64,000 nt of DNA. Origin: Euglena gracilis (Eukaryota). Below are positions 8,731-46,600 of the stretch, one piece after another; positions within the stretch are counted from its first letter, which is position 1; every line of letters starts with the position of its first letter. Under the pieces are notes generated by a model. That model made no database searches. It was given only the letters and a program-made list of their open reading frames with translations, and had not been told where the DNA came from. A program made the translations under genes and the position numbers. Location: contig CP154954.1 of the NCBI GenBank assembly GCA_039621445.1, positions 42,778,632 through 42,842,631 on the forward strand, written 5' to 3'.

Positions 8731-11700
8731 TGCCGCAGAGCCGCCCACACGCACCAAGACCTCAAAATGGACACTGGCCGGTTCGTCGTGATGGGCGTTA
8801 CCCGGAGAAGGATTGCACTGTGCGCAGAATGAAACAACAGAAATACTTAACAGAATTTTTTTTGACAAGACGGTCCGGATCGGGAAGGAGCTTAAGCAAG
8901 GCGCAAAGGATTACCTCCCCCCCCCGTCCTTGACATGCCAAAGCATGGGGAAGTGCGGTTGGCACAGGTGTGTCATTTAACAAGCCGTTTCATGCACTGG
9001 ATTATTGACAAAATGTGACCATTTTCAAAAATCAAAATTCGACCTTGAGTGCGCATCAACTCAACTGTGACTGGAACAATAACAAATACACCTTCCATCG
9101 CACCTCTTTTAGGGAGGTTACGCCAAGGAAATTGTCCCCTGGGTCACAGCTGAGCTTTCAAGCTGGAAAGTGCGATACCTCCAAGTTGTCATGTCAAAAT
9201 CATTGTGTTTTTAAATAATTCATCGGAATTTTTCAGCAATTTTCGCAAATTTTGCATGTACAACATACTAAATATACAAAAAGCAAACAATGAACCTGTT
9301 TTTTTTAGAGGCCTTAATGCTTCGCATTCTTTGCAATGCAATTCTCCCAATTTTTTCACCTGGAACTCTCCCAGGTCATATTTCCGAAGGGACAGTAAAA
9401 GCCTTGCAGACAATCAATGTACTCTGGAAATGTCTTCCAGCAAAAGTGGCGCAGCTGCAATTTCCTTCCCCCTCTCTCTCTCTGGCTTCGACTTTTGCAG
9501 AGCTGCATGAAAGGTGAGGTGAACCAGAACGAAGTCTGACCAAACCCCCAGCCGGCCATTGCCCCACGGAGGAGCCCACGTCTGGGAGGCCCTGGTTGGG
9601 GTGCTTCGCGCCGAAGTGCTTCCGCAGCACCTCCGTCGCCCGCTCGTACATGTCCACCGCGTTCCGCTGGTCCCCCACCGCAGTGTAGATCGCCGCCATC
9701 TGCTCATACAGCCGCGTCACGTCCGGCCGCTGCCCCTCCCGGGCAGGCCCACCCCCACACCCCCGGGGTTGGGGGGGGGGGGTTGGGGGAAGCCCCCCCC
9801 CCCACAGCTTTGCCTTGACAGGTGTAGACCTCATCTGTACTTTCCAGTTTTGAGAGTGCACAGAACTGTGCACAGAACAGAAACTTTGGCCGATTTTGGT
9901 GTGTGTGTGTGTGTGTGTGTGTGTGTTGCGTGTCTGCACGGGGGGTCTTGGGCTGAAACCACCCCAGTAGCTATGTATGCAAGGCGAGTAACAGGTTGAA
10001 GGATTGGGAGGCGTAGGGATGATCCAACCACCACCCAGTAGCGCAAAATTTTTAGGCCCGCGCTTTGCGCTGGGACCAAAAATTGGGCCAAACCTAAAGG
10101 TGTCCTCCAACTAGGGGGGGGGGTGTTGGACACGGGGGGGGGGTAGCAACACTGGGAGGAGCCTAAAACTGCCCACCAACACCAACACCATGACCCCCCC
10201 CCCCGCACCACCCCCGAAGCCCTCAGGAATGCGCCGTCCGCCAGAAGGGGGAGGCCTGGGGGCGGGTCAGCACCTGCACCGCCTTCCCGAACATCTCCAG
10301 CGCTTGCTCCGACTCCCCTTGCGAGTGCAGCAGCGGAGACGCGGCGGTGCCCCCTGGGCTACGCCGGGGTCCCCTCAGGCCCCTGGGTCCCTCCAGCCCA
10401 TGGGCCATACCTGCTGCATCCCCGGGCCCCGTGAAGTTCCAGGTTGGACCATGGAGGACCCCCCAGATGGTTCCAGCGGCCCAAACCCACCCGCCCCGCG
10501 GGGTCGCTTCAGGTTGTTCCACGACAACGGGTGGCTCAGCGGTGGAACATCGGTGCCCCAATGCAAGTGTTCCGGAATGGATCCCTGGCAGACCAAGTTT
10601 TTGCCCATGGCAGCCAAAGAGAATTGGTAACTGCTCACAATGCCCCCACCGCTGGTGTGATGGGTGCCAGCCCAAAAATTGAAACCCCGAACTCTGTGGT
10701 TCGGATCCTCGGTAGGGTGTGCCCTGTGGATGCAACTCCCTGTTGTTGTGCAAATCCTTTCACACGCAACTGTTCGCAGGTCCCCACCCCGAATCCCGAA
10801 CACCCACCTCCAACCCTGCACTCCCCACTACCTTTCGGTGGCTGGGGGGGGGTTAAAACGAGCTCGAACGTTCGACCACCAGCCTCTGTAACGGTCACAC
10901 ACACACACAAGGAGGTGGGGGAGGTACCTGCCCCCCCCCCAGAAACTGCCATGCCCGAGAAACTGTCAGGGTCCTGCCCGGGAAACTGACACTGGTACGT
11001 ACCGGCCAACCTGTCAGGGTGGGTTGTGGTCAGAGTCCCTGGTACCCGGGCCTGTCAGGGTCATTTCTCATTGACTTTCCCTCGGAATGCCCTGGCTGAG
11101 AAAATGTCGGGGTCCCGCATGGGAAACTGTCAAGGTCCTTGGAACCGGCCAACCTTTCACAATGGGAAGTTGTCAGGGTTCCCATTACCGGCCGACCTGT
11201 CAGGTGACAGTTTGTGTCTGCCTCCATTTCCCATCTTCCTGGCGGCGTGAAGCAATTTTTTCAATTCTAATTAAATATTATTTTTTGAATTCATTTGGGC
11301 GTAATGGACAAGCTGGAGCCTTGGGGGCATGTGAAGAGTGGTCACCGCACCGCTGCGGCCGTCCCCAGCTGCTCGTAAGAGAGGGCGACGTCGTCGTGCT
11401 GCTCGCCGAGGGTGCGGACCTTGATGTCGAGGGCCTTGCTGCACAGCTCGAGGGCGGTGGCCAGCTCCCCCTGGCGGGAGTACGCCTCCGCCATCTTGGA
11501 GTGCGTCGGGTGAGGGGTGGGCTGGAGGGCCACCAGAGGGGGGGGGGGCTGGTCGCGGGTGCGATGCGTGGCTGGGGTTGAGAAAGCCTGGGGTGACACG
11601 GCACGGTTTCATATGTGAGCCCCCCCCCGGGAATCTGTCACTGGACTAATCAGCGAGTATTAACCCCCCCAAAATAAGACCCCCCCCCAAAATAAGACCC

Positions 11701-43600: not shown

Positions 43601-46600
43601 CACTGCAGACTGAGCCTGCCAAAGCCTTTGGCCGCCCCCTTGCCAGGCGACCTTCCTCAGCGGGGAGGCGATCATCTTGTTGGTGAAGAGCACCGCGACG
43701 AGGGCAACGGCGGCCAGGCTGGTGACGCTGATGATGACCAGCAGGGCCACCGACCACCGGATCGGCCGGTCGACGGGCCCAGTAGCCGTCTTGAGGCATT
43801 GGGGTTGGGGGGGGGGTCGGGACTGCGGTGAGTGAGAAATAGGACCCGCCCACCCATGTTGGTTGTTCACCTGGGTGGTGTCAGGATCAGCTTGATGCCT
43901 CCTCCTTTTCCTCACTTCAAGCATTATGAAAAGATTGCGGTAGAGTGTGCATTGATCTCCTGTGTCTGAAACACACCAGTTGCCATTGCGTTGCTGGGGT
44001 GGATTTGGGCCAGTGACACAGCCCCTTACACCCCCAAGAATGCCACGTCTCCGACATATTACTGTTGACATGGAGGTGCGCTAGCCCACCTTCGCAAAAA
44101 AAATGCACAAAAACACGTTACACAAGTGCAAAATGTGAGAGAAAAGGCGCAAAAAATGAGAAATCATCATGAAAAATGAAAAAATTTACACCCAAAAACG
44201 TGCGGAAAAATCCAAATTTGAAAAACCGTATGCAAATGTGAGGAGAATGCCATTTACAATAACAAAACCAGTTTAAATATAAATTATAAAAAAAGGAGAG
44301 CAATACCAAAAATGCGCTGGAAAAAAATGAAAAGCACAAAAATGGGCAGAAATGCGGAGAAATTTTCATTTGCACACACCCCACATCAGCACTTGTATAA
44401 ATCAGTGGGGGAGGTGCCAGCGATTTATCCGATCGCCATTCGCACCAGTTCAGTTCGTGTGGTCCATTGTAGGGGCTCCGTTAGGCACAGCCCTCGACCA
44501 AACAGGTGGGGAGGGCCACTTTCTTGGAGAGAGAAAGAGGCGGCCCCCGGTCTGCACTGTACGGCGTGGCGAGCACGAGGCGGTACGGCGTGGCGTCCCC
44601 CCGGGATGGGGGCGGGGCTTGGCTACATCGCCCCGGGGCTGCAGGAAAGAAATGCGAGTGAACCAACAGGAACTGTCGAGAACGCAGCTGGAAAAAAAAC
44701 TGGAGGGGGCAGCATGGCACCATGTCCAGGCCAGAACAAAACCAGTTGCCATCTGGCAGATGTTAAAAATTAAGAAGCGACAACTAATGAAGACATTGCA
44801 ACAAAAACTTTGAAAAGGCAAAGAGGATGGAATGTGTTGCGCATCCCCTCATACGTTGTGCAACTCCCTTCTGTTGCCGATGCCCTCGCACGCAACTGTT
44901 CGGGGGCCCTAATATAACAAAATCCCTGTGCCTGTTTGTGTGCAACTCCTGTGTGTGTGCAACCCTCTTTTGTTGCCGATACCCTTTCATACGAAACTTT
45001 CCGGACGGCCCAAAAATAACAAAACCTCTTGTGATACATATGCCCTGTGTGTGTCATCACCCTTTTGTTGCCAATGCCCTTTTGTATGCAACTGTTCGGA
45101 TGCCCTAAAATTACAAAACTGTTGCATATGCCCTGTGTAGAAAGGAATTTTATCGTATTTTTTTAAGATAAATTATTATTCAGTTTTATGATAATAATTA
45201 TTTTGGATACATCTCTAATAAAATCGAGAAGAAACTTCCATGCTAATGAAATCAAAATGCATCAGATATGTTTCTAGTGTGAGACAAATTCTCTGGGATC
45301 TTATGCACAACTTCAAATGTATTTTAAAAACGGTAAAAAAGATAACATTTCAAATATATGTACACATTACTTAATTATTTCTTTAAAAATTGATATACCA
45401 GCCTTTACGAAAAAAACATAAAAAAATCCTGGAAATTCAGAAAACCATGCAAAGAATGTGCAAAAAGTATGAGCAAAATTGAAAAATTTCCGAAAGAAAT
45501 CATCTCCAGCTCGCAGCCAACAGCAGAAAAAAAATTTGCGAGCTTCGAGAAAGTGCTCAATTTTGTCAAAAGAGTGCCATGCCGAAAGAGCAAAGCTGGC
45601 AAGTACAGGCCAGGAATCAACAGACACTTCACCGAGCCTGTCGTGAAACAGCACCTACAGCTGTGAGATCAATCCCCGGGAGTGACGACCCGCTGCCAGC
45701 TGATGAGGTGGCAGCCGCCCCGGTTGGAGTCCAGGCTGCCCGACGTCGCGGCCGGGGAGGGGGGCGGCAGCGCGCGGAACGTGTCCGCCACCACGGCGCA
45801 GTCGGAGCTAGCCGCGTCCAGCAGCTCGTCGCCTCGGTGGGTGGCACCAGAGGCGGCTCCATGGGCGGACGGGGTTCAGAGCAAAATTTTAGGATCTGGG
45901 GGGTCTGGCACCCACCCGCCAACACAGCACAAGGGTGGGAAGGTCCCTTCCTCAGTCTAACGCAAAATCTGGCGGGGGCGGACCCACCCACCAGCCAGCC
46001 ACCTACCCCCCCCCCCCAGTCACCAACCTGGAAAAAAAATGTCTCTGGTTCACCATACGTGGGGTCTGGAAATCGGAGGGGGAGGGAGTTTGTTGACAAC
46101 GGCGAAGCTTAAATTTCCACAAACATTGACAATGCTTGAACTCCACCAGAACTTGCATTATTTGACTCCACCAATTGAAATAATGGATGCCCAAGGCTGG
46201 GGCATGGGTTGTTAAATCCCCCCCATGAGTGTCAGGTGTGGCCCGGTGGAGGGCCCCTGCCCGGCGCCGCACGTGGCGGCGATCAGCGTGCCGCGGTCGT
46301 CCACGAGGTACGCCGTGGAGGCCCCCGCCGCCCCGCCGCTGAACCGCTGCACCGCGGAGTGGAGCAGCGCCGCCCAGTCAGCCCCCCAGGGCCTCGCCCC
46401 GCAACCAAACTCTGTCGACCCAGACCCTCTCCCCAGTGCTACCGAGGGCACAGCATTTCTGTGTGTGTTCCACGCCCGCAATTGAATGTGTGTGTGTGTG
46501 TGTGTGTGTGTGTGTGTGTGTGTGTGTGTGTGTGTGTGTGTGTGTGTGTGTGTGTGTGTGTGTGTGTGTGTGTGTGTGTGTGTGTGTGTGTGTGTGTGCG

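Follow-up and report, generated by a model that had tools for sequence, protein, structure and literature searches.

Nonconventional introns are the commonest intron type in Euglena: they make up 71.8% of the introns of E. agilis, and their share in E. gracilis is comparable (Nomura et al. 2025, PMC12501133). Knock-in mutagenesis in the same study set their cis code as 5'-N3CDG ... CH'GN5-6/R (a slash marks the splice junction throughout, and R is a purine), with CGG-CCG and CGG-CTG as functional derivatives and pairing just inside the motif as a requirement; 61.2% of nonconventional introns carry this code and the other 38.8% fall outside it. For E. gracilis, a consensus of CCAGG at +3 to +7 and CCTG at -9 to -6 has been given (Gao et al. 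2024, PMC11170887). The introns are reported to be released as full-length circles (reviewed in PMC11282704) and, according to three sources, are excised after the conventional introns and have ends resembling terminal inverted repeats (TIRs) and target-site duplications (TSDs), which are taken to suggest an origin from miniature inverted-repeat transposable elements (MITEs) (PMC12501133, PMC11282704, PMC3935182). Here we analyse the introns of two minus-strand genes, a receptor-type cyclase gene (gene 1) and a gene for an ankyrin and TPR-repeat protein (gene 2), in a 64,000-nucleotide (nt) stretch of E. gracilis contig CP154954.1, hereafter the window. We conclude, with a probability of about 0.93, that both are Euglena nuclear genes whose introns belong to the euglenid nonconventional class and are ordinary for it.

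The introns at this locus do not differ in kind from those described in PMC12501133, PMC11170887, PMC3935182 and PMC4770533. They share the non-GT-AG borders, the CAG/CTG positions, the purine-initial exon, the inward helix, the slidable borders, lengths from tens to thousands of nt and the CCAGG/CCTG consensus. In a few local introns the register is conserved with different letters, namely in 42190-43644 (AAG-CTT) and 37396-38268 (GGC-GCC, with N6 in place of N5); the papers class such introns with the 38.8% outside the code.

An initial annotation of this DNA had proposed that both genes use non-GT-AG introns with base-paired ends, citing conserved motifs that rejoin in frame across five intervals: DKYIG/DCVMA (40094-40744), PV/ADH (38355-40055), NVA/SRLEG (37165-37292), LKGK/AV (34700-37041) and KHP/EV (8731-9597). 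All five motifs were found at the positions it gave. Its assignment to the euglenid nonconventional class was borne out, as every one of these junctions follows the published code exactly in the form N3-CAG ... CTG-N5/purine, with CAG at +4 to +6, CTG at -8 to -6 and G, G, A, A and G, respectively, as the first downstream exon base. The five also fit the E. gracilis consensus. By chance, the code signature appears in 0.12% of 200,000 random window intervals. Seven of the nine introns tested follow the code, comprising five CAG-CTG introns of gene 1 (41549-42120 being counted via the 42122C allele described below), one CGG-CTG intron of gene 1, and gene 2 intron 8731-9597, placed by homology. 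GT-AG, GC-AG or AT-AC termini were found on the sense strand in no equivalent placement of the nine joints or claims tested. Slidable borders with short direct repeats gave one to nine extra equivalent placements at six of the nine introns.

RNA evidence was obtained for 34400-46480, which takes in part of gene 1. Reads and contigs were mapped using a raw RNA-seq run (X21), two contig sets taken to be RNA (X1 and X2) and a DNA-like contig run (X20); these came from a listing of contig sets guessed to be RNA (X1-X19), the one DNA-like set (X20) and raw RNA-seq (X21-X24). Among the joints listed, seven occur in X1, X2 and X21, which derive from three studies, and have depth 0 in X20 (Table 1); none can be placed at GT-AG. 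The remaining eight of the 15 listed fall within repeats, either tandem or high-copy; six of them were seen in X20 alone, one was confined to X1 and another was shared by X1 and X2. X20 contigs run unbroken over exon-intron borders at 34671-34954, 41735-42506, 43721-44134 and 45580-45939, and RNA depth is ~85-336 in exon bins versus 1-4 in unique intron bins. Because the joints are confined to RNA, the X20 contigs cross the borders and RNA depth contrasts in this way, the intervening DNA is genomic and is removed from RNA.

Table 1. Introns, RNA joints and other features of the window. Intron borders are given as first six ... last eight nt/first exon base, on the sense strand; joints give the two flanking exon positions, with the number of bases skipped as length.
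Feature	Coordinates	Strand	Length (nt)	Borders	Evidence and remarks
Intron, gene 1	34700-37041	minus	2342	GGC-CAG ... CTG-TGGGC/A	RNA joint; 6-bp helix; duplex -21.3 kcal/mol
Intron, gene 1	37165-37292	minus	128	GGC-CAG ... CTG-CGGCC/A	Contig piece ends; top-scoring in-frame junction; 5-bp helix
Intron, gene 1	37396-38268	minus	873	no CAG/CTG	RNA joint; 5-bp helix of GGCGC with GCGCC, N3/N6 register
Intron, gene 1	38355-40055	minus	1701	GGC-CAG ... CTG-CCCAC/G	RNA joint; 7-bp helix at shift +3
Intron, gene 1	40094-40744	minus	651	GGC-CAG ... CTG-CCGGG/G	Within cyclase IGD motif; 5-bp helix
Intron, gene 1	~40970-41493	minus	517		Homology only; placements 40970-41486 to 40977-41493
Intron, gene 1	41549-42120	minus	572	GGC-CAG ... 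CTG-GCCGG/A	RNA joint, mapping as 41551-42122 on the window allele
Intron, gene 1	42190-43644	minus	1455	GGC-AAG ... CTT-TGGCT/G	RNA joint; 7-bp helix at shift +2; 5 equivalent placements
Intron, gene 1	43775-44552	minus	778	GAC-CGG ... CTG-GGCCC/G	Published CGG-CTG derivative; RNA joint, shift +1
Intron, gene 1	44608-45681	minus	1074	TCC-CGG ... CCG-CCCCC/A	Top-scoring in-frame junction (homology)
Intron, gene 2	8731-9597	minus	867	AAC-CAG ... CTG-CGGCA/G	Guided by P0005; 7-bp helix; duplex -24.8 kcal/mol
RNA joint	34699->37042		2342		8 raw reads; slide impossible
RNA joint	37395->38269		873		7 reads
RNA joint	38351->40053		1701		8 raw reads; 3 equivalent places
RNA joint	41550->42123		572		9 reads; slide impossible
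RNA joint	42187->43643		1455		4 reads; equivalent placements up to 42192-43646
RNA joint	43773->44552		778		3 reads; 1 equivalent place
RNA joint, alternative	43765->45685		1919		
Tc1/mariner-like transposon remnant	36062-36820	plus			Within intron 34700-37041
Gene 1, receptor-type class III adenylyl/guanylyl cyclase	~55847-34543	minus			At least 19 coding exons; tblastn chain, Pfam
Gene 1, first exon detected by homology	~55847-55773	minus			
Gene 1, stop codon	34543-34545	minus			
Gene 2, ankyrin and TPR-repeat protein	23416-8635	minus			Paralog P0005; tblastn chain
Gene 2, start codon	23416	minus			
Gene 2, stop codon	8635-8637	minus			

Listed joints account for two of the five claimed junctions: LKGK/AV matches the joint 34699->37042 exactly, and PV/ADH coincides with one of the four placements open to 38351->40053. 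Position 43644, the upper end that the initial annotation gave to its series of junctions, fits an equivalent placement of 42187->43643. NVA/SRLEG and DKYIG/DCVMA are not among the 15 of 338 joints listed. For the former, contig pieces end at 37165 and start at 37293, as the junction predicts; for the latter, a piece starts at 40744 and the adjoining piece spans 40053-40097. These piece ends were derived from contig end offsets, calibrated on the known joint at 37042. Both junctions are also in the top-scoring in-frame set when the cyclase paralog P0002 serves as the guide. KHP/EV lies in the top-scoring junction set guided by the transcript-derived paralog P0005, an alignment that supports a predicted intron at 8731-9597. 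Intron 44608-45681 is likewise not among the 15 of 338 joints listed; contig pieces start at 45682 in X1 and X2. A search for protein fragments spanning the unlisted junctions turned up P0006 alone, a 55-residue genomic read-through of another paralog that is uninformative here.

One joint, 41550->42123, seems 2 nt off the code on the window allele, which has T at 42122. X20 has C at this position, and splicing of 41549-42120 on the 42122C allele gives exactly the observed mRNA, whereas the product of the window allele differs from it by one synonymous base. A one-base allele difference can thus make a code-conforming junction seem shifted. Positions 37074 (A>G) and 37077 (C>G) are allelic too: roughly one in two raw RNA reads departs from the window there, as does the X1 contig, and the X2 contig matches it.

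The ends of the introns pair with each other. Duplexes between the first 20 and last 20 nt range from -16.5 to -24.8 kcal/mol in nine introns, compared with a mean of -7.2 (standard deviation (s.d.) 4.6) kcal/mol in 3,000 random window intervals; the fraction of random intervals that do at least as well is 0.003-0.037 per intron. The five claimed introns carry in-register helices of 5-7 bp (Table 1), and a helix of at least 5 bp in register occurs in 2.3% of 200,000 random window intervals. In 42190-43644 the code register is kept with an A-T pair in place of the first C-G pair. A 9-nt direct repeat leaves intron 37396-38268 with ten equivalent placements, so many that its helix could be due to chance.

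The initial annotation had further claimed that the terminal stems hold even when 1-2 kb of transposons lie between them. The end duplexes, together with the repeats and transposase fragment found inside the introns, bear this out. Intron 34700-37041 contains a transposon remnant whose arms are 72-nt inverted repeats (36062-36133 and 36749-36820, 92% complementary), with a DDE_3 open reading frame fragment between them (36220-36726; PF13358, E 9.3e-11). Its DNA word depth in X20 is 2,000-3,800, versus ~20-100 in unique parts. Tandem arrays are accompanied by very high-copy repeats in 38355-40055 (DNA word depth 2.7-4.0e5) and by high-copy repeats in 42190-43644 (4.1-4.4e5 in two bins). Constraint falls on the intron ends only, so that the interior can accommodate nested transposons and repeats of 1-2 kb. 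The repeat stretches 38430-40041, 42460-42862 and 43266-43668 have X20 depths about four orders of magnitude above unique sequence and are also plentiful in the RNA contig sets.

Junctions of both genes were scanned with homologous proteins as guides. The top-scoring set includes a placement that follows the code at 8 of 17 gene 1 junctions, and two further gene 1 junctions conform with P0002 as the guide and the CGG-CTG derivative admitted; for gene 2, guided by P0005, the count is 5 of 17. These scans are imprecise and serve as supporting evidence only, because the guides are paralogs and the gene 2 chain misses at least one exon.

Several points weigh against assigning all of these introns to the nonconventional class. 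Two constitutive introns with RNA support (37396-38268 and 42190-43644) and the alternative joint (43766-45684) lie outside the published code. The exact placement of intron ~40970-41493 is ambiguous: one placement reads AGC-CAG ... CTG-N7/A, the two paralogs prefer different placements, and RNA cover at 40976 is absent. Backing is indirect for three of the five claimed junctions, by contig-piece ends for two and by paralog alignment for one. The guide proteins P0001, P0002 and P0005 are not the genes' own products but paralogs, whose best-matching exons show 93%, 81% and 78% identity, respectively. X21 is RNA on record, whereas X1 and X2 are RNA by guess and the kind of X20 is recorded as '?'; moreover, the joint results rest on the 15 of 338 joints listed. 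The terminal duplexes beat random intervals, and minimum-free-energy folds join both ends in two short introns, 37165-37292 (128 nt) and a predicted 67-nt intron. The total fold energies of these two are, however, no better than those of shuffled sequences (z = -0.14 and +0.61). It is thus the terminal pairing alone that is special.

We considered whether these could be spliceosomal (U2 or U12) introns with degenerate sites, recognised by a tolerant spliceosome. A GTGAGT lies 7 nt inside the 5' end of 40094-40744, and PMC11170887 leaves a spliceosome-dependent route open for the noncanonical introns of other species. Yet no RNA joint can be placed at GT-AG, GC-AG or AT-AC, and GY-AG candidates (Y, pyrimidine) score below the best in all 34 homology-guided junctions, so that they enter the top-scoring set at none of the 17 junctions scanned in either gene. 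The junctions instead follow the CAG/CTG helix at fixed offsets, and the helix is required in the published knock-in mutagenesis (PMC12501133). Together, these observations make a tolerant spliceosome very unlikely.

The joints might also be cDNA artefacts, produced by template switching of reverse transcriptase at direct repeats or hairpins. Border direct repeats are indeed present (9 nt at 37396-38268 and 3-4 nt at two other introns), and the intron ends form stable duplexes. By contrast, 34699->37042 and 41550->42123 cannot slide, the joints are in frame and restore conserved cyclase motifs that are found in paralog transcripts too, and all three runs, each from a different study, show them. 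Unique intron sequence is nearly absent from RNA, which would be unexpected were unspliced template abundant. We regard such artefacts as highly improbable. Least credible is programmed elimination of the intervening DNA in expressing nuclei: the TIR- and TSD-like ends recall excisable transposons, but the joined form has depth 0 in X20 for all seven joints and X20 contigs cross the borders unbroken.

Taking the introns as members of the nonconventional class, the literature suggests how they would leave the transcript. The paired ends would bring both junctions together, and a probably non-spliceosomal activity would cut 3 nt ahead of the helix and 5-6 nt beyond it, joining the exons, the intron leaving as a full-length circle. 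By descent the class is probably MITE-like, and the border direct repeats would be the remains of TSDs. The initial annotation described the splicing machinery as unidentified, and PMC12501133 and PMC11282704 still call it unknown; the window brings the intron-removing enzyme no nearer. A tRNA-splicing-like endonuclease was proposed in 2013 (PMC3935182), and we therefore rejected an endonuclease and ligase mechanism as a new idea. A literature search pairing 'nonconventional intron' with RtcB listed works that concern IRE1.

One tentative extension, which we think somewhat less probable than its opposite, is that in these genes the terminal helix itself, and not the CAG/CTG letters, fixes the cut register at 3 nt ahead of the helix and 5-6 nt beyond it. 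The register is kept with other letters in the two RNA-supported introns 42190-43644 and 37396-38268, and the homology-predicted introns 15128-15261 (GAG-CTC) and 14810-14997 (CGC-GCG) resemble them by eye. If general, a helix-set register would widen the published code to cover some of the nonconventional introns that it leaves unexplained, and would favour an endonuclease that measures structure over a factor that reads sequence.

In other lineages the spliceosome removes most introners, using GT-AG or similar sites. Such transposon-derived introns, including MITE-derived ones, resemble the introns described here in their inverted terminal repeats and TSD-like direct repeats and, according to the review, in a patchy, recent-looking distribution (PMC11282704). 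They differ in that the borders here are set by a terminal helix, and the same review treats the mechanism as distinct or unknown. In the bulge-helix-bulge introns of tRNAs and archaea and in IRE1-type splicing, as here, RNA structure fixes the cut sites at set offsets (PMC3935182); this is an analogy and not membership, as no such motif or enzyme has been shown for Euglena. Diplonemid noncanonical introns are also euglenozoan nuclear introns off canonical borders (PMC12621601). For group I and group II self-splicing introns, no Rfam family reached the gathering score in the whole window.

The phenomenon itself is already known. The class, its code, the direct repeats, the MITE-like origin, the circles and the unknown machinery were published between 2013 and 2025. 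While the class reading of the initial annotation holds, the weight it gave to that reading does not, since this is the majority intron type of Euglena and not a rare one. As a discovery, the result matters little, the cis code having been defined in 2025. Its practical value is for annotation: gene models in such windows need the N3-CAG ... CTG-N5/R rule, not GT-AG.

Introns 34700-37041 and 37165-37292 are alike at both ends beyond CAG/CTG (summed local score 28 versus a null mean of 11.5, s.d. 2.9) and may be related copies, of which nested insertions have enlarged one; we make no claim of an intron family, because repeats inflate the null (maximum 43). In P0001, residues 572-590 contain a 16-residue insertion exactly at the DKYIG/DCVMA junction (window 40094-40120). 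The start and end of the insertion align with the translated 3' end of intron 40094-40744, where a second CCCTG precedes the used one. This alignment suggests that the paralog uses an alternative or slid 3' junction.

With its donor 3 nt upstream and its acceptor 8 nt downstream of the sites used constitutively, the alternative joint 43765->45685 omits the 56-nt exon 44552-44607. By count it loses 67 nt, which shifts the reading frame. At 86 and 69, its contig depth does not fall below the 57 and 37 of the constitutive joint.

The window is GC-rich DNA, rich in homopolymer G/C runs, microsatellites and repeats, and its two genes are readable from their exons (Table 1). The gene 1 product combines a transmembrane segment, a linker and a class III cyclase domain, as indicated by the tblastn chain with P0001 (EukProt EG_transcript_1910) and P0002 (EG_transcript_2386). 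Exon 40745-40969 matches these proteins at 93% and 81% identity, respectively, across the exon. PF00211 is carried by both proteins and is also matched by one window exon. For gene 2, exon 15256-15462 matches P0005 (EG_transcript_1598) at 78% identity, and Pfam identifies TPR_12 and Ank_2 on P0005. The closest proteins for both genes are EukProt EG_transcript entries, as expected of a euglenid host, and a single coded species label is shared by all the sequencing runs listed. A VVNVA motif at 18682-18696 was dismissed as chance, the cyclase domain being absent from gene 2 by tblastn and Pfam.

Long (GT)n/(AC)n microsatellites lie in introns of both genes, at 8236-8457, 15495-16010 (~270 units long) and 46487-46614. 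Upstream of gene 1, the region 58000-62000 shows strong strand asymmetry (AT skew 0.54-0.60), a GC content of 41-43% and short-period repeats.

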